Shown: positions 45,370-64,000, counted from the stretch's first letter. The stretch: 64,000 nt of DNA from Acidobacteriota bacterium (GCA_046757405.1 JBHHYE010000008.1:1944-65943), one strand, 5' to 3'. Numbers and translations are program-made. The notes: generated by a model from the letters alone, not told the origin.

Positions 45370-45530
45370 GTCGTTCCGCCTGGATCGCCATGGGGACCAT
45401 CCTGGTCCTGGTGTGGGGGGGGTTCGCGGCCGCCGTGGGGCTGGCGATTTCGTACGAACGGAGAAAACATGAAAACCGCGCCCCGCGGACCTGTCCTCCC
45501 GGGCCGCCCGTTCCAGGGAAAGGGAGCTGA
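45366..45530 (+). CDS. Small single-TM protein between the NSS transporters (candidate MetS-like small subunit)
   Basis: 54 aa: MSRSAWIAMGTILVLVWGGFAAAVGLAISYERRKHEN.... Its ATG overlaps the stop of NSS copy 1 (ATGA) and its TGA overlaps the ATG of copy 2 (TGATG). Confidence 0.45.
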   Translation: MSRSAWIAMGTILVLVWGGFAAAVGLAISYERRKHENRAPRTCPPGPPVPGKGS

Positions 45531-48960: not shown

Positions 48961-50369
48961 AACCGCCGGGTGCCGCGGGTGGAGCGCTTCCGGCGGCCCT
49001 GGTCCTGCTCCTGGTCTTGACCCTGGTGGCGACGCATCTGTCGTTGATGGCGCTGACCGCCCGGCTCGGCGTTGCCCGCGCCGCGGCCGGGGACCAGAGC
49101 TACCGGATCGCGGAGGGGCTGATCCTCCTGGCGGCCACCAAGAACGCGGGGGCGCTGGCCGCTTCCCTTGCGGATGGCACGCCTCTTGGCCTGGACATGG
49201 GGGTTCTGGGTCAACCGAGGTCCGCCGGGTCGGTCCGGGTCATGGATGACCTGGATGGTGACGGGGATCCGGCCGTGGACGCCAACGGAAGACTCTTCCT
49301 GACAGCGGAAGGCCGGTTTCCAGTGGGCGGGGTGATCCGCGCCAGCCGCCGGGTTCTGAGCCAGGAGGCCCTGGTGGGCGGGTTGACTCCCTTGCCGGCC
49401 GCCATCGTGGACTGCCAGGGCCTCGCGGCGATGTGCGGGGGGACGGCCGGGTGCCCGGTCCCGGCTTCCCGCGTGGACGGCGGCTCACGGCCCGCCCTGG
49501 CGGCGACCGCCACCGGGCAAGACCGCCTCCGGCAGCGCCTGTTCCTCCTCTATCGGGAGATCCTCCGCGCCGCCGATCTCAGGTGCGGCACCGGGTCGTC
49601 AGCCTGCACCCCAGACGATGAGGACCTGAGGCGGGCCGCCAGCACCGACGTGCTCCGGGCGATGGAGGATCCGTCCGCAGATGCGCTGGGCCTTGACTCC
49701 CTGGAAATGAGCCGGCTCATTTCCAACCTCTTGATGCTGTCCGGGGATGAATCGGGAGCCGGCACCGCCGTCTGGTTCGACGGATCGGCGCGGCCGGTCA
49801 CCGATCGAGCTTTGCTGGTGGCTGCCACGGAGAATCTCGGCCGGCCGGCGGGGCATGTCCCCGATCTGGCCGGGCATCCCGTGACCCTCCTTCTGGAGGC
49901 GGGCAAACCGCTGGGTTCCGATGGCGGGCTCTGCCGCCGTCTCGCGGCCCTGTTGCCGGCCGCCATGGTCCGCGCCATGGAGATCCCGGCCGCGGCCATC
50001 GGCCCGGCTCCGGGGCCGCCTCCCGCGAGAGGCACCTTCGTTCTGAGCCGCGACCTCCGCCTGGAGCCGGGCCAGGCCCTGGCTGGAGAAGGGCTCCTGG
50101 TGGTGGAGGCCACCCTGCGGATCGATACGGGCGCGGAAATCCACTGGTCGGGCGCTCTCGTGCTCGCCGGCGGGCGCATCCAGGGCCCCGGAATCGTGCA
50201 GGTGGAAGGCGGTGTCCTGGACAGCGGCCGGCGGGCGGATGGCTCCCCGGGGCTCGACCTGTCGGCAAGCCAGTGGCAGGTGCAGGCCGACCCGGCGCGA
50301 AACGCGGCCGCCTGGGCTCCGGCCGGAACGGTTCTCCTGTCGTCGTGGGAGGAGGTGCCGGGAGAATGA
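48957..50369 (+). CDS. PilX-like minor pilin with large C-terminal domain
   Basis: ATG overlaps the upstream stop (ATGA). N-terminal hydrophobic helix MKPPGAAGGALPAALVLLLVLTLVATHLSLMAL; a ~420-aa soluble domain follows. Confidence 0.55.
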   Translation: MKPPGAAGGALPAALVLLLVLTLVATHLSLMALTARLGVARAAAGDQSYRIAEGLILLAATKNAGALAASLADGTPLGLDMGVLGQPRSAGSVRVMDDLDGDGDPAVDANGRLFLTAEGRFPVGGVIRASRRVLSQEALVGGLTPLPAAIVDCQGLAAMCGGTAGCPVPASRVDGGSRPALAATATGQDRLRQRLFLLYREILRAADLRCGTGSSACTPDDEDLRRAASTDVLRAMEDPSADALGLDSLEMSRLISNLLMLSGDESGAGTAVWFDGSARPVTDRALLVAATENLGRPAGHVPDLAGHPVTLLLEAGKPLGSDGGLCRRLAALLPAAMVRAMEIPAAAIGPAPGPPPARGTFVLSRDLRLEPGQALAGEGLLVVEATLRIDTGAEIHWSGALVLAGGRIQGPGIVQVEGGVLDSGRRADGSPGLDLSASQWQVQADPARNAAAWAPAGTVLLSSWEEVPGE

Positions 50370-50538
50370 GGGGGTCCAGTTCCCGCGCCGGCAGTCGGCG
50401 GAGCGGGCGTTCAGAAACTTGATTCCCTGGATCGCGAAACCCATATTGATCCCGGTCTCCGGCCGGGCAAAAACCCGCGGGTTGACCGGAAACCGGCGCC
50501 ACGGACTCGCCTGTCGGGCCGTCAGAAGGGGAAACTCC

Positions 50539-52254
50539 ATGGCTATAAAGCTGGGCTGGATGCTAGTGAATGCCAATATCATCACCGATGCCCAGCTGCA
50601 GGAGACCCTGGAATACCAGAAGAAGAACGGCGGAAAGCTCGGCTTCAACCTGGTCAAGCTGGGTTTTTGTACGGAAGAGGAGATCACCGAGTTCCTCTCC
50701 CAGCAGTACGGCGTTCCCAGCGTCAACCTGCGCCACTTCGAGACCGATGAGGAAGTTTACAAGCTGATCCCGGCGGAAGTGGCGCAGAAATATCTCATCA
50801 TGCCCCTGTCCCGGACGGGGGCCACCCTCACCATCGCCATGGTGGATCCCACCAATGTCTTCGCCATGGATGACATCAAGTTCATGACCGGTTACAACGT
50901 GGAACCGGTGGTTGCCTCCGAGATGGCGATCAAGGAAGCCATCGAGAAGTACTACGGATCCAGCCATTCTCTCGAGCTCAAGAAGGTCATGGATGAAATG
51001 GCCGCCAGCACCACCGAGGAGCTCGAGGTTCTGGACGAGGACGAGGAGCTCGATCTCAGAAGCCTCGAACAGGCTTCCGAAGAAGCCCCCGTCGTCAAGC
51101 TGGTGAATATCATCCTGACCGATTCCATCAAACGCGGCGCCTCGGACATCCACATCGAGCCGTACGAGAAGGATTTCCGCGTCCGGTTTCGTATTGACGG
51201 CGTCTTGTACGAGATCATGCACCCACCGCTGAAACTACGGGATGCCATTCTTTCGCGGCTCAAGATCATGTCCAAGCTCGACATCTCTGAGAAGCGATTG
51301 CCGCAGGATGGGCGCATCAAGATCAAGATGAAGGTGGCGGGACGGAACAAGGAGATGGACTTCCGTGTCTCGGTGCTGCCGACTCTTTATGGTGAAAAGA
51401 TCGTCCTGCGTCTCCTCGACAAGGATAACCTGGTCCTGGACATGCGCCGCCTGGGCTTCGACGACGAATCCCTGGAAAAGTTCGAGCGCGCCATCTTTCG
51501 TCCGTATGGAATGGTCCTGGTCACGGGGCCGACGGGATCGGGGAAAACGAACACGCTGTACTCGGCCATTCATACGGTGAACACTCCCGAGACCAACATC
51601 ATGACGGCCGAGGATCCGGTGGAGTTCAACCTGCACGGGGTCAACCAGGTGCAGGTCAGAGAGGCCATCGGGCTGACCTTCGCGGCCTCTCTGCGGTCTT
51701 TCTTGCGCCAGGACCCCAACATCGTTCTGGTCGGAGAGATCCGCGACTTCGAGACCGCGGAAATCGCGGTGAAGGCGGCCTTGACCGGGCACCTGGTTCT
51801 CTCCACCTTGCACACCAATGATGCTCCCTCCACCATCAACCGCCTGATGAACATGGGGATCGAGCCGTTCATGGTTTCCACCTCGGTCCATCTGATCTGC
51901 GCACAGAGGCTCGTGCGGCGGATCTGCAAGGAGTGCAAGGAGCCGTTCCGCCTGGCCCCGCAGGCGTTGATCGATATCGGCCTGGACGAGACAGAGGCGG
52001 CGAAGCTCAAGCTCTTCAAAGGGGCAGGCTGTCAGACATGCAACAACACGGGATACAAGGGCCGTGTTGGACTGTATGAAGTCATGGAAATCGGCGAGGG
52101 TCTCAGGGAGATGATTCTTTGCGGCGCGTCGTCGGTCGAGCTCAAGAAAAAGGCCATCGAGGACGGGATGATGACCTTGCGTGCCAGCGGACTTCAAAAG
52201 ATCAAGATGGGAATCACGACGGTGGAAGAGGTCATTCGGGAGACCGTCCAGTAA
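50539..52254 (+). CDS. pilB: Type IV pilus assembly ATPase PilB (GspE family)
   Basis: N-terminal GSPII domain, Walker A VTGPTGSGKTNTLYSAI, Asp/His boxes, and the tetracysteine CKECKE...CQTCNNTGYKGR. Confidence 0.9.
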   Translation: MAIKLGWMLVNANIITDAQLQETLEYQKKNGGKLGFNLVKLGFCTEEEITEFLSQQYGVPSVNLRHFETDEEVYKLIPAEVAQKYLIMPLSRTGATLTIAMVDPTNVFAMDDIKFMTGYNVEPVVASEMAIKEAIEKYYGSSHSLELKKVMDEMAASTTEELEVLDEDEELDLRSLEQASEEAPVVKLVNIILTDSIKRGASDIHIEPYEKDFRVRFRIDGVLYEIMHPPLKLRDAILSRLKIMSKLDISEKRLPQDGRIKIKMKVAGRNKEMDFRVSVLPTLYGEKIVLRLLDKDNLVLDMRRLGFDDESLEKFERAIFRPYGMVLVTGPTGSGKTNTLYSAIHTVNTPETNIMTAEDPVEFNLHGVNQVQVREAIGLTFAASLRSFLRQDPNIVLVGEIRDFETAEIAVKAALTGHLVLSTLHTNDAPSTINRLMNMGIEPFMVSTSVHLICAQRLVRRICKECKEPFRLAPQALIDIGLDETEAAKLKLFKGAGCQTCNNTGYKGRVGLYEVMEIGEGLREMILCGASSVELKKKAIEDGMMTLRASGLQKIKMGITTVEEVIRETVQ

Positions 52255-52280
52255 CCGCGCTGCCAGGAGGAAGAGCGCAG

Positions 52281-53402
52281 ATGGCAATCACATTGCACCA
52301 GCTCCTGAAGACTCTCGTGGAACAGGGTGGCACTGATTTGCATGTCACCACCAATTCCCCGCCCCAGATCCGTATCAATGGCCGTCTGGTCCCCTTGCAA
52401 CTGCCGCCCATGACGGCTTCCGAGACGAAGCAGCTCATCTATTCGGTGCTCACGGATAACCAGAAGCACCGGTTCGAGGAGAACCTGGAGCTCGACCTGT
52501 CGTTCGGGGTGAAGGGGCTCGCCCGGTTCCGTGCCAACGTTTTCCTGCAACGGGGAGCCGTGTGCGCCGCCTTCCGGACCATCCCCTGGGAAATCAAGGG
52601 GTTCAAGGAGCTCGGCCTTCCCGACATCGTCGAGAAGCTCAGCGACAGGCCGCGCGGACTGGTCCTGGTGACGGGCCCGACGGGATCGGGGAAATCCACC
52701 ACGCTGGCCGCCATGCTCGACAGGATCAACACGGAGCGCAACAGCCACATCGTCACCATCGAGGATCCAGTCGAGTTTCTTCACTCCCACAAGAAATGCA
52801 TTGTCAATCAGCGCGAGCTCAATGCCGATACGTTGTCATTCAGCAACGCCCTGCGCTCTGTTCTGCGCCAGGATCCCGATGTTGTTCTCATCGGCGAGAT
52901 GCGTGATCTTGAAACCATCGAGGCGGCGCTGAGAATTGCAGAGACCGGGCACCTGACATTCGCGACTCTGCACACCAATTCCACGGTTCAGACCATCAAC
53001 CGGATCATCGACGTCTTTCCGGCGTACCAGCAAAGCCAGGTGCGGGCCCAGCTCTCCTTTGTGCTCGAGGGGATTCTCTGCCAGACGTTGCTGCCCATGT
53101 CCACCAATGCGGGGCGGGTCATGAGCATGGAAATCATGGTTCCCAACGCCGCCATCCGGAACCTCATCCGGGAAGACAAGATCCATCAGATCTACTCCAT
53201 CATGCAGACGGGGCAGGCCAAATTCGGTATGCAAACTTTCAACCAGTCGCTGGCCTCCTTGTTCCTCAAGAAGAAGATCACTCTGGAGGTCGCGCGCAGC
53301 GCGTCGTCCAAGCCCGAAGAACTCGACGACATGATCAGCCGGGGCTCCGGGCTTATCTATGAGACCCGGCCCAATGCCGCGGCCCGCAGGGCCCGGCGGT
53401 AG
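52281..53402 (+). CDS. pilT: Twitching-motility retraction ATPase PilT
   Basis: Walker A VTGPTGSGKSTT, the PilT-specific AIRNLIRE motif, ~370 aa. It lacks the long N-terminal extension of PilB. Confidence 0.9.
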   Translation: MAITLHQLLKTLVEQGGTDLHVTTNSPPQIRINGRLVPLQLPPMTASETKQLIYSVLTDNQKHRFEENLELDLSFGVKGLARFRANVFLQRGAVCAAFRTIPWEIKGFKELGLPDIVEKLSDRPRGLVLVTGPTGSGKSTTLAAMLDRINTERNSHIVTIEDPVEFLHSHKKCIVNQRELNADTLSFSNALRSVLRQDPDVVLIGEMRDLETIEAALRIAETGHLTFATLHTNSTVQTINRIIDVFPAYQQSQVRAQLSFVLEGILCQTLLPMSTNAGRVMSMEIMVPNAAIRNLIREDKIHQIYSIMQTGQAKFGMQTFNQSLASLFLKKKITLEVARSASSKPEELDDMISRGSGLIYETRPNAAARRARR

Positions 53403-53435: not shown

Positions 53436-54638
53436 ATGCCGACCTATTCATGGAAAGGGCGCAACCCCGCAGGTGTCATGCAGGAAGGCGTCCTGTCCGC
53501 GGACAGCAAGGAAGCGCTGGTGGGCATGCTGCGCAAGCAGCAAATCCTGGTCACGGCCGTGACCGAGAAGGGGAAGGAATTCGCCCTGCCCAAGTTCGGG
53601 GGCGGAGTCAAGCAAAAAGAGATCGCCATCTTCACCCGGCAGTTCAGTGTCATGATCGATGCAGGTTTGCCACTGGTCCAGTGCTTGGAAATCCTGGCTG
53701 GACAGCAGGTCAACCGGGTCTTCAAGAAGGTTCTGGTCAATGTCCGGCAGGATGTGGAAGCCGGGGCTACCTTGGCCGATTCCCTACGGAAACATCCGAA
53801 AGTCTTCAACGCTCTGTACTCCAACATGGTGGCCGCCGGCGAGACCGGCGGTATTCTTGACACGATCCTGCAGCGCCTTTCCACCTACATTGAGAAGATT
53901 GTCAAGCTGCGCGGCGCGGTGCGCTCAGCCTCCGTCTATCCGGTCGCCGTGATTACCATCGCCGTGGGGGTGGTGACGATCATTCTGTGGAGAGTCATCC
54001 CGACTTTCGCGACTCTCTTCGAGGGGCTAGGCGCCCAGCTGCCGCTGCCGACGCGGATCACCATCGCCATTTCCGAGTTCCTGGGACGATGGATGCCGGT
54101 GCTGGTTCTCATGGTCGGCCTGCTCATTTTCGCGATCTTCCGTTACCACAAGACCCATTCGGGCAGGCGGTGGATCGACCGCTTGGTCCTCAAGATACCC
54201 GTGCTCGGCTCCCTGTTGCGAAAGATCGCCGTGGCGCGATTTTGCCGGACTCTCGGGACGTTGATCTCATCGGGTGTTCCGATCCTCGAGGGGCTGGAAG
54301 TCACGGCCAAGACGGCCGGCAACTCGATCGTCGAGGATGCCATCATGGCGACCCGGAAGAGCGTGGAGGAGGGGAAGAATCTGGCGGTGCCCCTGGGAGA
54401 CACCAAGGTCTTCCCTTCCATGGTCGTGCAGATGATCGCCGTGGGCGAACAGACGGGCGCCATGGACGCCATGCTGGCCAAGATCGCGGACTTTTACGAG
54501 GACGAAGTGGACGAGGCAGTGGCCAATCTTCTTGCCCTGATGGAACCGGTGATGATAGTCTTCCTGGGGACGATCATCGGCGGCATCGTGATTTCCATGT
54601 ATATGCCGCTGTTCTCGCTGATCAACAAGATCGGGTGA
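53436..54638 (+). CDS. pilC: Type IV pilus inner-membrane platform protein PilC (GspF family)
   Basis: Two GspF repeats (FTRQFSVMIDAGLPLVQCLEIL... and ...FCRTLGTLISSGVPILEGLEV), ~400 aa. Confidence 0.9.
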   Translation: MPTYSWKGRNPAGVMQEGVLSADSKEALVGMLRKQQILVTAVTEKGKEFALPKFGGGVKQKEIAIFTRQFSVMIDAGLPLVQCLEILAGQQVNRVFKKVLVNVRQDVEAGATLADSLRKHPKVFNALYSNMVAAGETGGILDTILQRLSTYIEKIVKLRGAVRSASVYPVAVITIAVGVVTIILWRVIPTFATLFEGLGAQLPLPTRITIAISEFLGRWMPVLVLMVGLLIFAIFRYHKTHSGRRWIDRLVLKIPVLGSLLRKIAVARFCRTLGTLISSGVPILEGLEVTAKTAGNSIVEDAIMATRKSVEEGKNLAVPLGDTKVFPSMVVQMIAVGEQTGAMDAMLAKIADFYEDEVDEAVANLLALMEPVMIVFLGTIIGGIVISMYMPLFSLINKIG

Positions 54639-54751: not shown

Positions 54752-56446
54752 ATGACAGACACCCTCTACAAAATCCGGCTCTTGATGGTGGTCCGGGTGG
54801 TGGCGGTGACGGCCCTGCTCGTGGTGGCCTTCCTGGTAGAGTTATGGTTCCAGCCGGCACGCTCGCTTCGCCCTCTTTATATTCTCACCGCGGCCACTTA
54901 CTCCCTCACCATCATCTATGGATTGCTCTATGCGACTCTCCGCGAGCAGCAGGTCTTCATCCATTTACAGCTGATCGGCGACATCCTGGCCAGTTCGGCT
55001 TTTGTCTACATAACGGGCGGGACGACCAGCCCTTTTTCATTTCTCTATGTTCCGGTCATTCTCGCCGCGGGCATGCTGCTCTACCAGCGGGGCGCGTACA
55101 CCTTCGCCTGTCTCTCCTCCCTGGCCTACGGAACCCTGGTTGTGGCCATCTTGACGGGAGTGCTCCCGGTGTATCCCCCCGGGTCGATGCAGATCTCCGC
55201 AGCGGAGTTCAAGCGCGCCAGTTTTGCACTTATGGTCCACTTCCTGGGGTTCGGACTGGTGGCCATCCTGGCCTCGGCCCTGTCGGAAAGTCTCCGTCGG
55301 ACCGGCGAGGAGCTGGGAACCACCCGCGAGAATCTGGAAGACCTGCAGGTGTTCAATGCCCTGATCATTGATTCGGTGAATTCGGGCCTGATCACCGCCG
55401 ATCCGGCCGGCCGGATTACCTTCCTGAACCGCGCCGCCCGGGAAATAACGGGGCTCATGGAATCATTCGCCCGGGAGCGATCCATTCAGGATCTTTTTGA
55501 TTTGCCGGATGATTTCATCGAACGCCTCAACCGATGCCTGGCGCGGGCCCGCCGTTTTCGATTCGAGGTGCGCTACCAGGTAGCGGCGGGCGTCAACCGG
55601 ATCCTTGGATTCACCGCGGGACTGCTTCGCGACAAGGAGCGCATGCCACTGGGCTATATCTTCACCTTCCAGGATCTCACGGAGATCAAGGCTCTGGAAA
55701 AAGAAGTGCTGGTACGTGAGAGAATGGCAGCCGTGGGAGAGATGGCGGCCGGGATGGCCCATGAGCTGCGGAATCCACTGGCATCCATGAGTGGTTCGGT
55801 ACAAGTTCTCGGAACCGGTATTCCCACGGAGCGGCGCGACCAGATGGAGCTCCTGGAAATCATCCAGAGGGAGTCCCTGCGCCTTGACCAGGTGTTGAAA
55901 GATTTTCTTTCCTTCGCCCGGCCGCGGCCTTTCAATCCAGAATTGACCGATCTGGTCGGTCTCCTGACCGATCTTGTCCGCTTGCTCAAGAATTCTCCAG
56001 GATTGCTTCCCGCCCACCAGGTCGTGACCACCTTTGCATGCCAGTCGCTTCCCTGTCACGTGGATGTCGATCGCATCAAACAGGTTTTCTGGAACCTTGC
56101 CAGTAATGCTCTGCGGGCCATGCCCGCGGGCGGACGCCTGGAGATCTCCGCCGGCCCCGCCCGGGATGGCATGGTGGCCTTCTCGTTCACGGACACGGGC
56201 CACGGGATGACCGCCGAAGAGATGAGGAATTTTTTCAGGCCGTTCCGCTCCCGGTTTGACGGGGGGACCGGGCTCGGAACCGCCATCGTCTACCGTATTG
56301 TGCAGGAGCACAACGGACGCACGACCGTTGACTCGGAACCGGGGCGCGGCACCAAGGTCGTGGTGTCGATCCCGGCGCAGCCCGTAGGGACGACCGATTA
56401 TCGTGAGGAGAATCGATGGGAGCAATTGGTCGAGCACGTGTCCTGA
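54752..56446 (+). CDS. pilS: Sensor histidine kinase PilS-like (polytopic N-terminus, PAS, HisKA, HATPase_c)
   Basis: Six N-terminal TM helices, then the H-box MAAGMAHELRNPL and N/G boxes (GGRLEISAG..., GTGLGTAIV). It is adjacent and co-oriented with pilR. Confidence 0.8.
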   Translation: MTDTLYKIRLLMVVRVVAVTALLVVAFLVELWFQPARSLRPLYILTAATYSLTIIYGLLYATLREQQVFIHLQLIGDILASSAFVYITGGTTSPFSFLYVPVILAAGMLLYQRGAYTFACLSSLAYGTLVVAILTGVLPVYPPGSMQISAAEFKRASFALMVHFLGFGLVAILASALSESLRRTGEELGTTRENLEDLQVFNALIIDSVNSGLITADPAGRITFLNRAAREITGLMESFARERSIQDLFDLPDDFIERLNRCLARARRFRFEVRYQVAAGVNRILGFTAGLLRDKERMPLGYIFTFQDLTEIKALEKEVLVRERMAAVGEMAAGMAHELRNPLASMSGSVQVLGTGIPTERRDQMELLEIIQRESLRLDQVLKDFLSFARPRPFNPELTDLVGLLTDLVRLLKNSPGLLPAHQVVTTFACQSLPCHVDVDRIKQVFWNLASNALRAMPAGGRLEISAGPARDGMVAFSFTDTGHGMTAEEMRNFFRPFRSRFDGGTGLGTAIVYRIVQEHNGRTTVDSEPGRGTKVVVSIPAQPVGTTDYREENRWEQLVEHVS

Positions 56447-57876
56447 TCGTCGACGACGAGAAGTCGATGCGGGAATTGCTGGCGATTGCCCTGGAGCCTG
56501 ACCAGCTCGAGGTGAAGGCGGTTGCCTCGGTGGCCGATGCCCGGAGGGCGATGCAGGAAAGTCCTTTTGACCTGGTGGTGTCTGACATCGCCATGCCCGG
56601 AGAAAGCGGCATGGAGCTCCTGGCCGAGCTCCGCCGGTCCAGCCCCCAGCTCCCTGTCATTCTCATCACCGCCTACGCATCCATGGAGTCGGCGAAACGC
56701 GCTTTTTCATTGGGTGTTTATGATTGCGTCGACAAGGGCGCGAGCTTCAACATCGAGGAATTCCGCGCGACGGTGCGCAACGCCATCCAGTCGCGCCAGG
56801 TGCTTCAAGAGAACCAGATCCTCAAGAAGCAGCTCAAGAACCGGCATGGACCCGGGACCCTGGTGGCCCGCTCCCGGAAAATGCAAGCCGTCTGCGATCT
56901 CATTGATCGGGTGGCGCCGACGCGCTCCACGCTGTTGATCACCGGCGAGAGCGGCACAGGCAAGGAAGTGGTGGCCCGGACCATTCATTATTCCGGCCCA
57001 GGGGCCGAGGCCCCCTTTGTCTCCATTAACTGCGGCGCCATGCCCTCGGAATTGCTGGAGAGCGAGCTGTTCGGCCACATGAAGGGTGCGTTCACCGGCG
57101 CCCTGGCGGCCAAGCAAGGATTGTTTCAAGCGGCCCGCGAGGGTACGGTCTTTCTGGATGAGATCGGAGAGATGCCGCCGTCAGCGCAGGTGAGACTCCT
57201 CCGGGTCTTGCAGGAACGGACCATCCGGATGGTGGGTGGGACCGAGGAGATCGAAGTCGAGGCGCGGGTGGTGGCGGCCACCAACGCAGACCTGGCCGCC
57301 AAGGTCGAGCAGGGTGCCTTCCGGGCGGACCTTTACTACCGGATCAATGTCATTCCCATTCATCTACCGCCTCTCCGTGAGCGCCTGGAAGACATCTCGG
57401 CTCTTGCCCAGCTCTTCGTCCGGAGATTCGCCCGCGAGCTCGGCCGTGAGGCGCCTGAGTTTTCGCCGGAGTCCCTGCGCGCGCTGGAAGAGTACGCCTG
57501 GCCCGGGAACGTGCGCGAGCTGGAGAATGCGATCCAGCGGGCCGTGACCCTGGCCGGTGAGGGGGCCATCACGCCGGATGTGCTGCCGGCGGCGATCACG
57601 GAAAAAGACGCCGTGGGCGCTCCACCAGGAGAAGGGCGCCTGGAGACCGTCTCGCCCACGCTGATCCCGGAAGGACAGAACCTGGACCAGTACCTGGGAA
57701 CCATCAAGGCCTCGCTCATGGAGCGGGCCCTGGAGGAGTCCAACCATGTCCAGGTGGAGGCGGCGCGGCGCCTGGGCATGTCGTTCCGGTCGTTCCGGTA
57801 CTTCGCCAAGCAGCTGGGAGTTCACGTTCATCCGGAGAGCCGTGAGCGAGAGGGCGGACGAGGGTCCAAAGGGTGA
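56416..57876 (+). CDS. pilR: Sigma54-dependent response regulator PilR (NtrC family)
   Basis: REC domain (VLIVDDE...D at the phospho-site), AAA+ sigma54-activator core (GESGTGKE, GAFRADLYYRINVIPIHLPPLRER), and a C-terminal Fis-type HTH. Confidence 0.9.
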   Translation: MGAIGRARVLIVDDEKSMRELLAIALEPDQLEVKAVASVADARRAMQESPFDLVVSDIAMPGESGMELLAELRRSSPQLPVILITAYASMESAKRAFSLGVYDCVDKGASFNIEEFRATVRNAIQSRQVLQENQILKKQLKNRHGPGTLVARSRKMQAVCDLIDRVAPTRSTLLITGESGTGKEVVARTIHYSGPGAEAPFVSINCGAMPSELLESELFGHMKGAFTGALAAKQGLFQAAREGTVFLDEIGEMPPSAQVRLLRVLQERTIRMVGGTEEIEVEARVVAATNADLAAKVEQGAFRADLYYRINVIPIHLPPLRERLEDISALAQLFVRRFARELGREAPEFSPESLRALEEYAWPGNVRELENAIQRAVTLAGEGAITPDVLPAAITEKDAVGAPPGEGRLETVSPTLIPEGQNLDQYLGTIKASLMERALEESNHVQVEAARRLGMSFRSFRYFAKQLGVHVHPESREREGGRGSKG

Positions 57877-60347
57877 CGGTCACTTCCGGCAGGGGCCGGT
57901 TCATGGCCCCGCCGATCCTGGGCGTTACCCTGGCGGCCTTCGCCGGAGCCCTGAGCGGCGGCACCCTCTATTTTCGAGACCTGATTCTTCTTCACCGTCC
58001 TGTCCGCGTGGCCATCCGCCGCCTGTGGAGAGCGGGAATCGTGCCTCTCTGGGATCCCTGGCAGGATGGTGGGCGCGTTCTCCTCGCCAACCCGAACCAC
58101 CAGGTTCTCCATCCGACGGCTCTCCTGGACCTCTTCTTCTCGGTGGACACCGCCCTTGCCGCCGCCATGGTCGTGCAGGTTTTCCTGGCCGGCTGGGGAC
58201 TGGCCCTGTTCCTCAAGGACCGGGGCGCGACCCCCGCCGCGGCCCGGATGGGAGGGATGACCTACGCGCTTTCCGGCCCCGTGCTGTCGCTGGGCAATCT
58301 TCCCAACCTGATGGGGTCGATTGCCTGGGTGCCCCTGGTGCTCTGGGCCGGCTGCCGGGCGTTCCGATCGCCGGGGCTCTGGGTCCCGCTCGCCGCGTTC
58401 CTGGCCGCGATTCCGGCCTTGAGCGGCGGCGTCGAATCTCTCGGAGTGGCCGCGCTGATCCTCGGGGCTTTGGCCCTCTGGCACCCGGACCGGTTGCGGC
58501 GGCTCGGTATCACCGCGAGCATCACCGTGGGGGGACTCATGCTGGCGGCGGTGCAGCTTCTTCCCGCCTGGGAGACCTTGCGCGACTCCGAGCGCGGGCT
58601 GGGATTCCAGCCGGACCAGATCTTTTACTGGTCCTTTTCTCCCATTCGTTTCCTGGAAGCCGCCATCCCCCGGCTCTGGGGCCTGCCCACCGACCGGGCC
58701 GCCTGGTGGGGCGAGGCGGTGTTCGACGGGGGATGGCCTCTCATCCTCTCGACGTACCTGGGGGCCGGTGTGCTGGTCCTGGCCGGGGTTGGCGGCAGCG
58801 TGGCCATCGGACGTTTCGTCGGGCGCGCCGGACGCTTCCGGCGAATGGCCGCGGCGCGGTTGCCGGACGAGATGTGGCAGTCCACGCTGGTCGCAGGATG
58901 GACCGGGACCGGTCTCATGCTGCTGGCTCTGGGACGTCACAATCCGCTCCTGACGCTCTGGGGCGGCCTGCCCAGGGCAGGGGGGGCCATTCTTCGTTAT
59001 CCGGAGCGACTGGTCCCGCTGGCTGTGCTGGCCGTTGCGGTGGCTGCCGCAGCCGGCTGGCAGGTGCTGGCGGCGGCGAGACAGGAAAAGGAGGCTCTGC
59101 CACGGAGCTGGTGGATGGCGGCCGCCACCATGGTCCTCCTGCTCGGTCTGGCCGGAGCCATGGCGCGGTGGGCCGGCCTCCATCCCGTCGGACTGTACCA
59201 GCCGGCGCTTTCGGCGCGGGCTGCGGCTGCCCTGGTCCTCCCCGTGGTCAAGGCCGTGGCAGGGCTCTGGGTGGTGGCCGTGTGTGTCTGGATGGCCGGC
59301 CGGCCGCGGCGCGAATCTCTTGCCGCGGGCCTTCTGTTCCTTGCCCTGTCGGCGGATCTCCTGGCTGCGAACGGAGCACTGAATCCCACCATGGATCCAG
59401 GGCTGATGGCGTCCGAGCCCGCGGCGGCCAGGTTCCTTGCCTCGCTGGAGAGCAGCGATCGTCCGGAGGAGAGGCCCTGTGTCGTGCGTGGTGTCGAGCC
59501 CCGTGGGCCGTGGGCCGCGGCTCCGTCCGGCGAGGCGGCCGTCTGGTCCCGCCACAGCCTGGCTCTCAGGATCCCGGAGGAGTTCGGGTTGGCGACCTCC
59601 TTGACCCGGGACGTGGACCGCTCCACCCCCCTGGGCAACGCGTATCTGCGTGTCGCCCACCGGCAAGCCACGGGTGCATCCCGGGAGCGGCTGGCGGATC
59701 GTGCCGGAGCCTCCTGGGAGCTGGGATTCGATCCCGGGCCGTCCCCGATTCCCGCGGGCGCTCCCTTCCACCAGAAGGTCCTGCCCGGGGCTCCGGCCGT
59801 GGTCCTCTGGCCGCGGCCCGACGCGGCGCCGCGGATCAGCATCGTGCCCCGCGGGATCGCCCTGGGAAGGCTTGCCGCGCCGGGAGGGCTTCAACGGCTC
59901 CTGGCCCGGCTCGGCGACCCCGGCTCCGACCCGCGGCGCGAGGTTTTTCTCTCAGGGCGCCAGTCCCGCCCCGTGGAGGGACACTGGGAGCCCGCGGCGG
60001 GACGCGCCGACCTGGTCGTGGAGACGCCGCTCCACCTCGAGATCGCCACGCAGGCGCCCGGCCCCGGGGTTCTGGTGGTCCGCGATTCACTGGCGCGCGG
60101 CTGGCAGGCGCGTCTGGACGGGCGCCGGGTCGAGGTTGTGCGCGCTGACCTGGCCTGGCGGGGAGTCGTCCTGCCGGCCGGCCTCCACCGGGTAAGCTTC
60201 GTGTACCGCCAGCCGGGCCTGGTTGCCGGGACCGCGTGCAGCGCGATGGCCCTGGCGGTTCTCCTGGGCGTGGCCGGCCGATCGGTACGCCGTCACGGGC
60301 GGTGGCAGGCAGCCCGCCAGGCCGAGAACGGCCGGAGGGCCGCTTGA
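57873..60347 (+). CDS. YfhO-family-like polytopic membrane protein (GT-C-fold glycosyltransferase candidate)
   Basis: About 13 N-terminal TM helices and a ~300-aa extracytoplasmic C-terminal domain. It ends GWQARLDGRRVEVVRADLAWRGVVLPAGLHRVSFVYRQPG plus a terminal TM helix, closely resembling the conserved YfhO C-terminus (..W.A.VDGK.V...AN.AFRGV.LPAG.H.V.F.Y.P). Confidence 0.6.
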   Translation: MTVTSGRGRFMAPPILGVTLAAFAGALSGGTLYFRDLILLHRPVRVAIRRLWRAGIVPLWDPWQDGGRVLLANPNHQVLHPTALLDLFFSVDTALAAAMVVQVFLAGWGLALFLKDRGATPAAARMGGMTYALSGPVLSLGNLPNLMGSIAWVPLVLWAGCRAFRSPGLWVPLAAFLAAIPALSGGVESLGVAALILGALALWHPDRLRRLGITASITVGGLMLAAVQLLPAWETLRDSERGLGFQPDQIFYWSFSPIRFLEAAIPRLWGLPTDRAAWWGEAVFDGGWPLILSTYLGAGVLVLAGVGGSVAIGRFVGRAGRFRRMAAARLPDEMWQSTLVAGWTGTGLMLLALGRHNPLLTLWGGLPRAGGAILRYPERLVPLAVLAVAVAAAAGWQVLAAARQEKEALPRSWWMAAATMVLLLGLAGAMARWAGLHPVGLYQPALSARAAAALVLPVVKAVAGLWVVAVCVWMAGRPRRESLAAGLLFLALSADLLAANGALNPTMDPGLMASEPAAARFLASLESSDRPEERPCVVRGVEPRGPWAAAPSGEAAVWSRHSLALRIPEEFGLATSLTRDVDRSTPLGNAYLRVAHRQATGASRERLADRAGASWELGFDPGPSPIPAGAPFHQKVLPGAPAVVLWPRPDAAPRISIVPRGIALGRLAAPGGLQRLLARLGDPGSDPRREVFLSGRQSRPVEGHWEPAAGRADLVVETPLHLEIATQAPGPGVLVVRDSLARGWQARLDGRRVEVVRADLAWRGVVLPAGLHRVSFVYRQPGLVAGTACSAMALAVLLGVAGRSVRRHGRWQAARQAENGRRAA

Positions 60348-62098
60348 GAAGGTGGGCCACGATTCTGGTTCTTGCCGCGTTAGGATGCGCCGCTCTCTCT
60401 GCGGGAAGCGGCGCCATACGCTCGTTTGACTTCGGCTGGCACCTGCGCGCCGGAGAGTCGATTCTCGAGCATCATGGGCGGCCTCCTCGGGCCGACCCCA
60501 TTGCTTATACCAGCGGATCCGCCGAGTGGATCGACCACGAGTGGCTTTTCCAGCTGATCCTGGCTCTCCTGGTCCAGGCGGGAGGTCTGAAGGGGGCGTG
60601 GCTGCTGAAACAGACTCTCATCCTGGTCGGGGTGCTGGTTCCGGCCGCCTGGCTGTTGCGGATGAATCACTCTCCCTTGGCGGTGGCCTCCTTGGGGGTT
60701 CTGGCTCTGGCGGGCGGCCGGTTCCGTTTTTCTGCGCGGCCGGAGATGGTCGCCGTCGCCTTCTTGCCCGCTCTCCTGATCGTCCTGGTGGTCGCCCACC
60801 GACGCGCACGGCGGGGAGCGCGGATGGTCCCACTCCTGGCGCTGGTCCCGATCCTGGTGCTGGGCTGGGTGAACCTGCATCTTTCCGCCTTGCTGGCAGC
60901 TCTCCTGGTTGTCGTCTTCGCCCTGGCCGTGCTCATCGAGCAACGGGGAACCGATCGGATCAGCCGGCCGTTCCTGGTGACGGCTGTTCTGGCGGGGGCC
61001 GCTCTCCTGGCCAACCCGTACGGGACCCGTCTCCTGGCGGTTCCTTTTTCCATTCATACAGCCCTCACCAGCGGGGGATTGACCAACCCCGAGTGGGGAA
61101 GTGCACTGCACAGCCGTTTCGGGCTTTTCTGGACGGTCTTGCTCGCCGCCGGCACCGGCCTCCTCCTGGCCCGCCGGGCAGGCAGGAGAATGGTCCTGCC
61201 GGTGGCGGCCTGTGCGGCGGTTCTGGCTGTCGCCGGGGGTGCTGCCGCTCGCACCCTGAGTTGCTTCTACATGGCCTTGCCGGTCTGCGCCCTCGCCGTC
61301 ACCACCGGCAAGCAGTCCGGTGCGGCACAGGAAGTGCGGGCGGGATGGCGTGGCCGGGTTTCGGCCGGGGCGGCCGTCGGTCTTCCGCTCCTGGCAGCGG
61401 GTCTCTTCATGCTCTTTCCCGGGGGAGCTCCAGGGGGAGTCGGACTGGCCCCGGGACGCTTTCCCGAGGCGATGGCGTCCACCTACCAGGAGATGGGACT
61501 GCGCGGCCCGATCTACAATCCGGTCCGTTTCGGTGGATATCTTTCCTGGGCCCTGGCGCCCCAGAAGGTGTTCATCGATGGACGCAACGAGGTCCACGGA
61601 GAGCTCCTCTCCCGCCTGGCGGCCTGCCGGATGGCGACCCGACTGGAGTGCTGGGATCGGCTCGTGGAGCGATGGGATACTCAGGCGGCGTTCGTGGAAT
61701 ATGATCCACGCCGCATTCCGGTCCGCCTGCCTGATGGACGCTTCATCTCACGCAGCGTGTCATCGGTCTACTTCAGGCGGGATTCCTGGGCGCTGGTGGA
61801 CTGGGATGACGTCGCCATGCTTCTGGTCCGGCGAGGCGGCCGGAACGCCGAGCGGATCGACGGCCAGGAGGACCGGGTACTGATGCCCGAGGATCCAGAA
61901 TATTTTTACCGGGAGCTCAGAGCGGGGCGGATCGACTGGCGGGAAGCCCAGCGAGAGGTGAGCCGGCGGCTGGCCCGGCATCCAGATTCCCGGAAGGCCC
62001 GCCTGCTCCAGGAGATCGTGCGCCGGCTGGAGGTTGAGGTGAATGAGGGGAAAAATCGTCCACCGGTGGTCCGGGTGACGGGCAGTGGCGGGGACTGA
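60344..62098 (+). CDS. Polytopic membrane protein with acidic first-loop motif (GT-C-like glycosyltransferase candidate) and ~190-aa C-terminal soluble domain
   Basis: TTG 60344 overlaps the upstream stop. TM1 is followed by a periplasmic-loop motif SAEWIDHEWLFQ (GT-C-like DxD/ExD position), then 10 or more TM helices and an Arg/Glu-rich soluble C-terminus. Confidence 0.55.
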   Translation: MRRWATILVLAALGCAALSAGSGAIRSFDFGWHLRAGESILEHHGRPPRADPIAYTSGSAEWIDHEWLFQLILALLVQAGGLKGAWLLKQTLILVGVLVPAAWLLRMNHSPLAVASLGVLALAGGRFRFSARPEMVAVAFLPALLIVLVVAHRRARRGARMVPLLALVPILVLGWVNLHLSALLAALLVVVFALAVLIEQRGTDRISRPFLVTAVLAGAALLANPYGTRLLAVPFSIHTALTSGGLTNPEWGSALHSRFGLFWTVLLAAGTGLLLARRAGRRMVLPVAACAAVLAVAGGAAARTLSCFYMALPVCALAVTTGKQSGAAQEVRAGWRGRVSAGAAVGLPLLAAGLFMLFPGGAPGGVGLAPGRFPEAMASTYQEMGLRGPIYNPVRFGGYLSWALAPQKVFIDGRNEVHGELLSRLAACRMATRLECWDRLVERWDTQAAFVEYDPRRIPVRLPDGRFISRSVSSVYFRRDSWALVDWDDVAMLLVRRGGRNAERIDGQEDRVLMPEDPEYFYRELRAGRIDWREAQREVSRRLARHPDSRKARLLQEIVRRLEVEVNEGKNRPPVVRVTGSGGD

Positions 62099-62259
62099 CA
62101 TCGAGTGTCCACAAAGCTGACAATATCTGGCAGGTCCGGGAGCCCTCGGGAGTCTCGCCTGGGAATGGGCCCAGGCAGACAAGCACTCGTAAAATGTAAG
62201 TTACTGAATACAATGTACTTATAATTCTAACCTGCTCTCCCCGGCCCGCTCGGGTCGGC

Positions 62260-62275
62260 TGGCATTCCCTTTGCG
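62260..62275 (+). promoter_or_regulatory. Sigma54 (-24/-12) promoter candidate for pilA
   Basis: cTGGCATtccctTTGCg matches TGGCAC-N5-TTGCW, ~37 nt upstream of the pilA start, with an AAGGAGG RBS at 62297-62303. An AT-rich stretch at 62190-62235 is a possible UAS/IHF region. Confidence 0.55.
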
Positions 62276-62311
62276 ACAGGGTCAAGCCAAACTCTAAAGG
62301 AGGTGACTGTG

Positions 62312-62785
62312 GTGAACAGAAAGCAAGAAGGATTCACACTGATCGAGCTGCTGATTGTCGTGGCGATTATCGGTATCATCGCCGCCATCGCCATCCCGAA
62401 CCTGCTCAATGCCATCGATCGCGGCAAGCAGAAGCGGAGCATGGCTGATCTTCGGTCCGTCGGAACAGCCGTGGAAGAGTATGCCATTGACAACTCTTTC
62501 TATCCCAACGTGGCTGCCGAGGCCAACATCGCCGGTTCCGCCGTGGAGACCTCGATCGAGCCGGTCTATATCCGCAATGCTCCGACCGAGGATGGGTGGG
62601 GCTTCAACATGCGGTATATCAGCGACACGACCGTCTACACGGTTGGTTCCCTGGCCAAGGATGGTGCGGCGGGCGGCAATCTCACCATCAACAGCACCAA
62701 CGGTCGGACCACCGACTTTGACTGCGACATCATTTTCTCCAACGGCTCCTTTGTCCAGTGGCCGGAAGGAACGCAGGCTGACTGA
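62312..62785 (+). CDS. pilA: Type IV major pilin PilA (T4a, GspG-like fold)
   Basis: A short leader precedes G|FTLIELLIVVAIIGIIAAIAIPN (E+5). GTG starts are possible at 62303, 62309 or 62312, downstream of a strong RBS. C-terminal disulfide-pair Cys (DFDCD). Confidence 0.85.
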   Translation: MNRKQEGFTLIELLIVVAIIGIIAAIAIPNLLNAIDRGKQKRSMADLRSVGTAVEEYAIDNSFYPNVAAEANIAGSAVETSIEPVYIRNAPTEDGWGFNMRYISDTTVYTVGSLAKDGAAGGNLTINSTNGRTTDFDCDIIFSNGSFVQWPEGTQAD

Positions 62786-62806
62786 GCCTGATAGGCCGTG
62801 AGGAAT

Positions 62807-62850
62807 AGCGGCGGTGGCCTCGAGGGAGTCCACCGCCGCTTTCCCTTTCT
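62807..62850 (+). terminator. Intrinsic terminator-like hairpin after pilA
   Basis: 11-bp GC-rich stem AGCGGCGGTGG/CCACCGCCGCT with a 12-nt loop, followed by TTCCCTTTCT. Confidence 0.5.
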
Positions 62851-62879
62851 CGCGCCAGGGATCCAGGAGGGCCGCCAGG

Positions 62880-63335
62880 ATGTTCGAGACCCGGGGGAAC
62901 AATCATCGTGCGGAGGGGTTCACCCTCATCGAGCTTCTGGTCGCGGTCACCATCATCGGGATCGTTGCCACCATCGCGGTGCCGGCGCTGAACACGGCCA
63001 TGGAGAAATCCCGCCAGCGCGCGACCGTCGCCAACATGCGCGCCGTGGGGAACGCGCTCCAGATCTACCAGAACGATCTGACGTCGTTCCCCCCGGGCAC
63101 GCTGGATATCAACCAGCTGGCGGTCGCCCTCCTGGGAGTCACCAAACGGCCGATCCCGGTACACGATTCATGGGGCCGGGATTTCGACTATCGTTCGGAC
63201 GGGCTGGTGGAGTATTCAGTGGAGAGCTTTGGCCGCGACGGGGTGCCTGGAGCCGACATTTCTCCCGCGCAAGCCAATAACTTTGACCTGGATATCGTCC
63301 TGAGCGACGGTATCTTCGTCGCCTCGGTCAACTGA
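62880..63335 (+). CDS. Second type IV pilin (PilA paralogue, GspG-like)
   Basis: MFETRGNNHRAEG|FTLIELLVAVTIIGIVATIAVP (E+5). It is paralogous to pilA (SMADLRSVGTAVEEY vs TVANMRAVGNALQIY). Start at ATG 62880. Confidence 0.8.
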   Translation: MFETRGNNHRAEGFTLIELLVAVTIIGIVATIAVPALNTAMEKSRQRATVANMRAVGNALQIYQNDLTSFPPGTLDINQLAVALLGVTKRPIPVHDSWGRDFDYRSDGLVEYSVESFGRDGVPGADISPAQANNFDLDIVLSDGIFVASVN

Positions 63336-63393
63336 CCGGAGTCCGGGCGGCTCCGCCGGCCGCCGGTCGTGACCGAAACCGGGGAACCGGGCG

Positions 63394-64000
63394 CATGGTC
63401 GCCGACGCCGGAGAGAAACCTTCTCTCCTCTTTTTTCTTCTTTGCGGTTTACTGGGCACGCTCTGGGTCGCTCCGCCGGAGATTTACCCCGGGGCCGCGT
63501 TTCTCGCCGCCTTGCTGCTTCCCGCCCTGGGGGGAACGCTCCTCTGGACCGGCTGGTTGCCGGACCGCGGCCAGAGATGGTTCCTGGCGGCGCTCGTCTT
63601 GCCGCTGGCGATCTCCCACCATTTCGCCCTGGACAACGGTGGATCTCTGCACAGCATGATCCGGTTGGCCGGGGCTCTGATCCTGTTTGCGGCCGCACGG
63701 CGGGTCTCCCCGGCGGAGGCGCGTGGCTTGCTGATGCTCCTGGCGGGAGGGATGGCGGTTCTTTCCCTCCATGGTCTCTGGCAGTACCTGGTGGGCTTCG
63801 ATCGCCTTCTGGCGGACCGGGGCCTGCCGGCCGGCGTGGTGGAACGGCTGCAGACCTACCGGGTCTTCGGCCGCTCGGTTCTGCCATCGGTGTTCGCGTC
63901 CCTGCTTTTCCTGGCTCTTCCGGTCTCTGTGGGCCTTGCTTCCGCCGCCCGTGGTCTGGCCCGGCTCGCCTGGGGAATGGCCGCCCTTCTCTCCGGCGTG
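63394..64000 (+). CDS. O-antigen ligase (Wzy_C) family-like membrane protein, partial (candidate pilin O-oligosaccharyltransferase, PglL/TfpO-like)
   Basis: ATG 63394 opens a frame without stops to the window end (not in the track because it has no stop). Multiple TM helices, and RVFGRSVLPSVFASLLFLALPV resembles the Wzy_C motif R..G...NPN..A..L....P. Confidence 0.5.

Follow-up and report, generated by a model that had tools for sequence, protein, structure and literature searches.

The window analyzed here, a 64,000-nucleotide stretch of DNA from an Acidobacteriota bacterium (GCA_046757405.1, JBHHYE010000008.1:1944-65943), ends inside a gene, here termed wzyC1, that lies directly behind the second of two pilin genes and downstream of genes encoding PilB-, PilT-, PilC-, PilS-, and PilR-like proteins (Table 1). 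A preliminary description of this DNA had reported an unlisted, hydrophobic open frame running off the window end immediately after the pilins, with its ATG at 63394. The frame is indeed there, and its absence from the ORF track is explained by the fact that the track omits ORFs running off an end; the ATG, however, lies one base later, at 63395-63397 (the DNA from 63380 to 63399 reads cggggaaccg ggcgcatggt), and translation from 63394 follows a wrong frame rich in Arg, Gly, and Pro. Read from 63395, 202 codons without a stop encode a hydrophobic protein that begins MVADAGEKPSLLFFLLCGLLGTLWV. No in-frame ATG, GTG, or TTG is found upstream of this position, and the stop codon of pilin 2 and the wzyC1 ATG are separated by 59 nt on the same strand. 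A second plus-strand frame is also open to the window end, as is a minus-strand frame (63449-64000), and at a window GC content of 65% the openness of the wzyC1 frame alone is no better than chance; it is homology, not openness, that identifies the frame as a real gene, since it encodes the start of a 569-residue protein with a family of 962 representatives.

Table 1. Features of the pilus gene region and the adjoining wzyC1 frame at the end of the window
Feature	Coordinates	Strand	Description
PilB-like ATPase	50212-52254	+	Pfam T2SSE with MshEN
PilT-like ATPase	52119-53402	+	Pfam T2SSE
PilC-like platform protein	53436-54638	+	Pfam T2SSF
PilS-type sensor kinase	54752-56446	+	Pfam 6TM_PilS, PAS, HisKA, HATPase_c
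PilR-type sigma-54-dependent response regulator	56416-57876	+	Pfam Response_reg, Sigma54_activat, HTH_8
YfhO-like polytopic membrane protein, 824 aa	57873-60347	+	between pilR and pilins
Mem620, polytopic membrane protein, ~600 aa	60302-62098	+	"hypothetical", MFQ5669625.1
Sigma-54-type promoter-like site, TGGCATTCCCTTTGCG	62260-62275	+	pattern match, 1 mismatch
Pilin 1	62303-62785	+	GenBank call of 157 aa, MFQ5669626.1; Pfam N_methyl and T2SSG
GC-rich hairpin and U-rich tail	62807-62850	+	directly 3′ of pilin 1
Pilin 2, accessory pilin-like protein	62880-63335	+	MFQ5669627.1; Pfam N_methyl and T2SSG
wzyC1, 5′ part	63395-64000	+	first 202 codons of a 569-aa Wzy_C / WaaL-fold membrane enzyme
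WzyC1 family signature, R156-x7-P164...P176	63860-63922	+	TM5-TM6 loop and TM6; outside the Pfam Wzy_C model

Two polytopic membrane proteins are encoded between pilR and the pilin genes. The YfhO-like protein matches Pfam YfhO, which we take to be a GT-C type glycosyltransferase family, at its C-terminal end only (30.0 bits versus a cut-off of 28.5) and weakly matches the NCBIfam models PgfM1 and PgfM2; its gene is kept in the related loci L003, L004, L017, L020, and L027, among others. Mem620 is predicted to adopt the fold of a GT-C glycosyltransferase, closest to protein-glycosylating enzymes. The sigma-54-type site, which lies between pilS/pilR and pilin 1 and close to the latter, is suggestive by position only, since the six occurrences of the pattern across the window, versus 2.8 expected, are not significant. 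Pilin 1, which is likely the major type IV pilin, also gives partial NCBIfam matches to GspG and PilA_Myxo. The RNA that follows it (62786-62850) folds with −37.7 kcal/mol (z = −4.5; none of 200 shuffles as good) and looks like a terminator or attenuator, in which case the downstream genes would be expressed by read-through; an intrinsic-terminator scan around wzyC1 is not above chance (six found versus 3.3 expected).

Only residues 196-202 of the Pfam Wzy_C domain fall inside the window, and the 202-residue fragment is for this reason silent in searches, with no Pfam or NCBIfam match and no homolog in a word-indexed protein search. An exact 51-base search for the window end in genome and metagenome contigs gave no match, and the gene was extended through an exact-protein look-up of pilin 2 (62880-63335), which led to a 27-kb Logan contig whose first 3933 bases equal window positions 60068-64000 with no mismatch. 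On this public contig wzyC1 is completed to 569 codons, the other 367 of which lie outside the window (L005 3934-5037). GenBank has the same protein (100% identity), encoded on an 89-kb contig, as MFQ5669628.1 under the title [quoted passage not shown]; the annotation is already public and the gene was unlisted only through the window boundary.

Full-length WzyC1 harbors Pfam Wzy_C (PF04932) in residues 196-329 (57.7 bits versus a gathering cut-off of 31.7 bits; E = 1.6e-15), the domain that the preliminary description had anticipated for the extended frame, and all 14 aligned members of the WzyC1 family match this model. A confident structural model has a WaaL-type polytopic membrane fold, at 15% identity to WaaL (7tpg/7tpj), and it is established that wzyC1, immediately behind the pilin genes, encodes a true Wzy_C / WaaL-fold enzyme. 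The DSSP helices of the model point to 13 TM helices with the N-terminus inside, of which the window would encode TM1 to TM7, followed by a C-terminal TPR domain of three repeats (residues 454-568). Arg clusters are found at the ends of those loops predicted to be cytoplasmic; this distribution, together with the 13 TM helices, would place the TPR domain in the periplasm, which the loops carrying R151/R156 and R270/H313 are also predicted to face.

To describe conservation we used 132 full-length representatives of the family (962 representatives at E < 1e-30), one per 50%-identity cluster. R156, R270, G288, G290, H313, and G324 are invariant in 132 of 132; P164, S209, and R253 are each conserved in 131, D370 in 130, P176 in 116, and H366 in 107. 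The conserved His and Arg expected of the large periplasmic loop are thus present as H313 and R270. The motif from which the preliminary description had proposed a Wzy_C protein is likewise present, reading R156-VF-G159-RSV-L163-P164-SVF-A168-S-L170-LFLAL-P176, with five residues, rather than four, before the last Pro. It is not the Wzy_C motif itself, since it lies N-terminal to the Pfam model, but it is a real signature of the WzyC1 family, anchored by R156 and P164 in a TM5-TM6 loop that, on the modeled topology, would be periplasmic.

Beyond the window, directly 3′ of wzyC1 and overlapping it by four bases, lies wzyC2, which encodes a second Wzy_C protein (655 residues; E = 2.3e-20) with weak TPR matches, whose best PDB match is WaaL (E = 0.0017) and which is also annotated in GenBank as an O-antigen ligase family protein. 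WzyC1 and WzyC2 have no detectable similarity by BLASTP (E = 0.28), and we rejected a recent tandem duplication on this basis. Among the top 150 representatives, at least nine are proteins of ~1240 residues in which a WzyC1 half is joined to a second matched stretch; in P0102, the sole fusion compared, that stretch shares 31% identity with WzyC2 (E = 1e-18). In fusions P0102, P0105, and P0119 the first TPR domain is followed by an additional hydrophobic linker, which may be a TM helix returning the chain across the membrane, as would fit an evolved fusion and not an assembly error. Downstream of wzyC2 are genes for a GT2+GT9 fusion, a CapK/PaaK-like ligase, a DUF362 protein, two GT4 enzymes, and a MurJ/MatE-like flippase, and several of the genes that follow wzyC1 have overlapping stop and start codons. 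PADLOC gives no match for WzyC1 or WzyC2 and thus no pointer to a defense system.

The order pilin-pilin-WzyC1-WzyC2 is kept in four orthologous loci (33-49% identity). Orthologs at 36-49% identity retain the longer series PilS, PilR, YfhO-like, GT-C, pilin, pilin, WzyC1, and WzyC2, and L006/L007 (33% identity) keep the four-gene order with a Wzm/Wzt exporter upstream and no PilS/PilR within 8 kb upstream. An independent genome search, for which a WzyC1 peptide pattern was the sole query, yielded 24 further loci, in which gene order was scored with HMMs built from the first loci. These are nearly all from Acidobacteriota MAGs (Polarisedimenticolia, Terriglobia, and gp22), with no cultured carrier identified among them. 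WzyC2 directly follows WzyC1 in 24 of 24, and a pilin gene lies directly upstream of WzyC1 in all 18 loci having upstream DNA (32-49% identity), everywhere on the same strand and with ≤157 nt between the pilin stop and the first possible WzyC1 start. Nine of the 24 have PilR farther upstream, and each of these nine belongs to the loci with the longest flanks on that side; both GT-C genes are missing from four loci of this set, and pilin 2 is missing from eight (L015, L017, L019-L023, and L027), or about half of the related loci. An arrangement of one transferase per pilin was rejected on the last of these counts, set against the presence of WzyC2 in every locus. Only the closest relatives retain the GT2/GT9, CapK-like, and DUF362 genes; other loci carry different ones, such as AsnB-like, heparinase II/III-like, GT2, GT4, and methyltransferase genes, part of which lie on the opposite strand, and glycan-synthesis genes lie near every related locus examined. 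The constant unit is pilin-WzyC1-WzyC2, beside a variable glycan island. That the downstream glycosyltransferase genes differ between loci argues against WzyC1 as a repeat-unit-specific polymerase; such Wzy polymerases are diverse, and the orthology of WzyC1 across different glycan gene sets is unlike them. Full-text literature searches turned up no work on glycosylated pilins or on O-antigen ligases linked to pilins in Acidobacteria, nor any account of this gene arrangement there.

Neither sequence nor fold can tell protein O-oligosaccharyltransferases apart from WaaL ligases or Wzy polymerases, and the former are described as not reliably separable from WaaL by sequence (PMC12645811). The PglL_A and Wzy_C_2 domains mark PglL and PglS, and TfpO and TfpM are without them (PMC12645811); in 14 of 14 WzyC1 family members, neither PglL_A (PF15864) nor Wzy_C_2 (PF11846) is detected even at E ≤ 10. 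A phmmer search of PDB sequences with the single full-length WzyC1 gives no match. With the family profile, the best match is 9rmk_A ("Oligosaccharyltransferase," 610 residues; E = 1.8e-6), which spans WzyC1 residues 185-552 and includes the C-terminal helical domain, whereas the match to WaaL (7tpg) is weaker (E = 7e-4) and confined to the membrane core. 9rmk is probably Neisseria PglL, because its residues R298, P313, G316, G318, H349, H400, E404, and P406 are the same, in numbering and residue type, as the ones reported for N. meningitidis PglL (PMC3643930). WzyC1 R270, P285, G288, G290, H313, H366, and D370 align to PglL R298, P313, G316, G318, H349, H400, and E404, respectively; P406 has no equivalent in WzyC1. 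Residues Q178, N180, G316, G318, H400, E404, and P406 are said to be PglL-specific; the first two fall outside the aligned region, and the G-x-G pair (G288/G290 in WzyC1) does not discriminate, since WaaL 7tpg has G-x-G too. Residues R288, H338, and R215 of E. coli WaaL correspond to R298, H349, and R224 of PglL (PMC3643930). The HMMER alignment pairs PglL S223-R224 with WzyC1 S209-H210, and across the family column 210 is Ala, Leu, His, or Val, with R208 present in only 59 of 132; the column aligned to PglL R224 and WaaL R215 is thus not Arg in this family. The essentially invariant R156 and R253 might take over its role.

The pilins themselves offer candidate acceptor sites. Pilin 1 ends in QWPEGTQAD and pilin 2 in GIFVASVN, the terminal residues being Asp and Asn, not Ser or Thr. 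Pilins that pair with TfpO have Ser or Thr as their last residue, which is where they are glycosylated, and all but one of the TfpM pilins end in Thr after a conserved motif, the observation that led to the discovery of C-terminal glycosylation; this rule of a C-terminal Ser/Thr is not followed by the window pilins. An alignment of the major pilins from 16 loci reveals a conserved tail, QWP(E/Q)GTQ, which is followed by a terminal Thr (GTQT) in nine of the 16 and by AD or SD in the clade of the window. Pilin 1 also contains a Gly/Ser/Thr-rich variable loop, GAAGGNLTINSTNGRTTD, and an Ala/Ser-rich stretch after the N-terminal helix, either of which could be an internal glycosylation site.

We favor, with a probability of roughly 0.55, the reading that WzyC1 is a pilin O-oligosaccharyltransferase. 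By analogy with PglL, PglS, TfpO, and TfpM, the glycosyltransferases encoded downstream would build a glycan on undecaprenyl pyrophosphate, the MurJ/MatE-like flippase would carry the lipid-linked glycan across the membrane, and WzyC1 would move it en bloc to Ser/Thr of the membrane-anchored major pilin before pilus assembly, with its TPR domain helping to hold the protein acceptor or the partner enzyme. Within the pilin, the glycan would most likely go to the region of the conserved tail, QWP(E/Q)GTQ-(T/AD/SD). WzyC1 would act together with WzyC2, which may be a polymerase, a second transferase, or a ligase. This reading draws on a strictly conserved adjacency that survives rearrangement around the block, on the PglL-like C-terminal domain and the better score against PglL than against WaaL, on the precedent of the known Wzy_C proteins encoded next to pilins, most of which are pilin oligosaccharyltransferases, on the conserved pilin tail, and on the two additional GT-C enzymes resembling protein glycosyltransferases that are encoded upstream of the pilin gene. 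Against it stand the undetected PglL_A and Wzy_C_2 domains, the missing Arg in the R224 column, and window pilins without terminal Ser/Thr. The stop/start overlap further couples wzyC1 translationally to a run of polysaccharide-synthesis genes, as for an O-antigen or EPS gene, and for Schulz et al. a location outside LPS loci spoke in favor of a gene being PglL (PMC3643930). The upstream GT-C enzymes could themselves be the real pilin glycosyltransferases, which would count against this role for WzyC1.

The main alternative, conceivable if on balance doubtful, is that WzyC1 and WzyC2 are instead a WaaL-like ligase and a Wzy-like polymerase, either way round, for LPS O-antigen or exopolysaccharide; the acceptor would then be lipid A-core or the growing glycan, and adjacency to pilA would reflect a conserved region of "surface structures" in Acidobacteriota genomes and not the pairing of an enzyme with its substrate. 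The GenBank annotation of both proteins, the shared fold of WzyC1 and WaaL, the best PDB match of WzyC2, and the absence of detectable PglL_A and Wzy_C_2 all agree with such a pair. So does the genomic setting, with gene overlap leading into the GT2/GT9, CapK-like, and DUF362 genes and on to two GT4 genes and a MurJ-like flippase, and with glycan-synthesis genes near each related locus; a polymerase-ligase fusion would make sense too. What weighs in the other direction is that WzyC1 carries an extra predicted TM helix and a TPR domain, the latter aligning to the C-terminal part of 9rmk, and that same-strand adjacency to a pilin gene is retained within 157 nt in 18 of 18 loci at 32-49% identity. 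Pilin-WzyC1-WzyC2 stays intact while the genes upstream (L006/L007) and the glycosyltransferase genes downstream change, and WzyC1 orthology is kept across these different glycan gene sets, unlike that of a repeat-unit-specific Wzy.

A bolder proposal, which we consider unlikely, is that WzyC1 and WzyC2 form an undescribed fifth class of O-oligosaccharyltransferase, a machine that would place a polymerized, strain-variable glycan on the acidobacterial pilin tail QWP(E/Q)GTQ(T). Each enzyme would carry a periplasmic TPR domain, the two would sometimes be one polypeptide of ~1240 residues, and the two GT-C enzymes resembling protein glycosyltransferases that are encoded between pilR and pilA would supplement the machine in many lineages.

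We judge it highly improbable that the pilin-like proteins and the two Wzy_C proteins make up a pseudopilus-assisted module for polysaccharide export or assembly, with common machinery, and not glycosylation of the pilin, as their link, after the model of the cyanobacterial Hps pseudopilins encoded with glycosyltransferases. The pilins of L006/L007 do lie inside a glycan locus (Wzm/Wzt ABC exporter, GT4, and GT2) with no PilS/PilR within the 8 kb upstream, and the pilins have GspG-type (T2SSG) domains along with weak matches to HpsB and HpsC. Those matches, however, are far below the cut-offs (E = 0.07 and 0.009), and in the window and most relatives the pilin genes follow pilB-pilT-pilC-pilS-pilR, like that of a major type IV pilin. 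We know of no pseudopilus-export role for Wzy_C proteins. Finally, that wzyC1 is a chance open frame of a GC-rich genome, as the other frames open to the window end and the silence of the 202-residue fragment in family and word-indexed searches might suggest, is already refuted by the significant Pfam domain and confident fold of the full-length protein, by the match of 962 representatives at E < 1e-30 over the whole length including the N-terminus, and by the family-wide invariance of residues within the window-encoded part.

Taken by itself, the finding amounts to an annotation guessed correctly; the protein at this position already bears the GenBank name O-antigen ligase family protein. Its interest lies in the setting. 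Pilin-adjacent Wzy_C enzymes (TfpO, TfpM, PglS, and many PglL) are the known route to O-glycosylated type IV pili and also the enzymes put to work in the production of bioconjugate vaccines, and the characterized examples in the cited literature are all from Proteobacteria (Neisseria, Pseudomonas, Acinetobacter and other Moraxellaceae, Vibrio, and Burkholderia). If the pilin-transferase reading is true, pilin O-glycosylation reaches the Acidobacteriota, a dominant but little-studied soil phylum, through enzymes of a different architecture, which combine a TPR domain with a second Wzy_C partner that is obligate or fused, and which perhaps follow other acceptor rules. Acidobacterial pili would then carry strain-variable glycans, with consequences for phage resistance, adhesion, and soil aggregation.

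Among the known systems, WaaL shares with WzyC1 the Wzy_C domain and the equivalents of R288 and H338. Canonical WaaL has ~400 residues and 12 TM helices and is without a periplasmic TPR domain; relative to the enzyme of Cupriavidus metallidurans (7tpg/7tpj; 403 residues in 7tpj), WzyC1 adds a predicted TM helix and the TPR domain. WaaL goes with the LPS core locus, whereas the genomic partner of wzyC1 is a pilin gene, and wzyC1 also abuts the variable glycan-synthesis cluster. PglL/PglO, the general O-oligosaccharyltransferase of Neisseria (550-600 residues), has in common with WzyC1 both the Wzy_C domain and a similar size, and the 569 residues of WzyC1 fit the PglL/PglS size class of 520-600 residues with a C-terminal periplasmic domain. 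Of 31 PglL homologs, 21 are pilin-adjacent, beside one or two pilin genes, and Neisseria pglL does not adjoin pilE (PMC3643930), whereas wzyC1 adjoins a pilin gene. PglL is found in Proteobacteria; WzyC1 is acidobacterial and always paired with, and sometimes fused to, a second protein with Wzy_C and TPR domains.

TfpO, TfpM, and PglS are encoded beside their pilin substrates (PMC9829042, PMC12645811), and the genes of TfpO and TfpM, like wzyC1, lie directly 3′ of the pilin gene on the same strand and encode a Wzy_C domain with an essential conserved His. TfpO (Pseudomonas aeruginosa 1244 and Acinetobacter; 440-470 residues) and TfpM (Moraxellaceae; 420-440 residues; size classes in table 2 of PMC9829042) are smaller than WzyC1 with its 569 residues and 13 predicted TM helices, and they are not described as having a C-terminal TPR domain or an obligate second Wzy_C partner, both of which are features of WzyC1. 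The position of wzyC1 had been said to mirror that of tfpO/pilO; this stands as far as adjacency goes (59 nt here, and 18 of 18 loci) and fails on size, the TPR domain, and the pilin C-termini, with alignment scores nearer to PglL. WzyC1 as a TfpO ortholog was rejected on its size, its domain content, and the tails of the window pilins.

A parallel in gene order is seen in Acinetobacter, where Harding et al. in 2015 reportedly described pilA-tfpO-pglL, with two oligosaccharyltransferase genes after pilA. There, as here, two tandem Wzy_C genes directly follow the major pilin gene. WzyC1 and WzyC2 differ from that pair in that they are dissimilar to each other, both have TPR domains, co-occur in 24 of 24 loci, and are fused in some genomes, which suggests one machine and not two independent enzymes. 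If the function holds, it is this TPR domain and the obligate, sometimes fused, second Wzy_C partner that would be new relative to the known pilin-linked Wzy_C transferases.

Taken together, the sigma-54-type promoter-like element and the downstream hairpin (−37.7 kcal/mol, z −4.5) that flank pilin 1, the first of the two pilin genes, suggest that this gene encodes the major pilin and is strongly expressed, with the genes 3′ of it reached by read-through. Comparison of 16 loci reveals that residues 1 to 58 of the mature major pilin are nearly identical in most of them and that its C-terminal QWP(E/Q)GTQ tail is strongly conserved; a terminal Thr is found in nine of these loci, and AD or SD in the clade to which the window belongs. 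A further hairpin lies 75 nt past the stop codon of pilin 2, inside the start of the gene for the Wzy_C enzyme WzyC1, and was retrieved in a scan whose overall yield was not above chance. This hairpin could attenuate transcription into wzyC1 or could be a by-product of Leu/Phe codons.

Features of the pilin–Wzy_C region and other genes in the window (window coordinates unless a locus is named)
Feature	Position	Strand	Remarks
SNF-family (sodium:neurotransmitter symporter) genes, two in tandem	43918–45369, 45530–46939	+	
YfhO-like polytopic membrane protein, 824 aa	57873–60347	+	Pfam YfhO match
Sigma-54-type −24/−12 element, TGGCATTCCCTTTGCG	62260–62275	+	just 5′ of pilin 1, 3′ of pilS/pilR
C-terminal tail of major pilin, QWP(E/Q)GTQ	62758–62785		also in pilin genes of related loci L002–L027
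Very stable hairpin + U-rich tail	62807–62850	+	3′ of pilin 1
Perfect 8-bp hairpin, GGAGAGAAACCTTCTCTCC, then TCTTTTTTCT	63410–63438	+	codons 6–15 of wzyC1
WzyC2, Wzy_C+TPR	5034–7001 of L005 (public contig)		just past window end

The start of the YfhO-like gene overlaps the stop codon of pilR, and the two genes are translationally coupled. The match to the Pfam YfhO model is limited to the C-terminal 50 residues of the protein. Most relatives keep this gene between pilR and the pilin; among the related loci compared, it is absent from L016, L018, L025, and L030. The tandem SNF-family genes, which are preceded by a biotin carboxylase gene (42496–43893), appear unrelated to the pilus locus.

In one distant relative (L006/L007; GCA_041494245.1, 1–17566), the pilin–pilin–WzyC1–WzyC2 block is embedded in a glycan locus that encodes ManC, a Wzm/Wzt ABC exporter, two YfhO-like proteins, a membrane protein resembling spermine synthase, a GT4, and a GT2; pilS/pilR were not found within 8 kb upstream of this block.

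WzyC2 follows WzyC1 in all 24 of 24 loci, and the two sequences are highly divergent. Natural WzyC1–WzyC2 fusions of ≈1240 aa exist among representatives of the WzyC1 family; P0102, P0105, and P0119 are examples and contain an additional hydrophobic linker segment, which reads as a transmembrane helix. This invariable succession and the existence of natural fusions point to a two-enzyme complex of WzyC1 and WzyC2.
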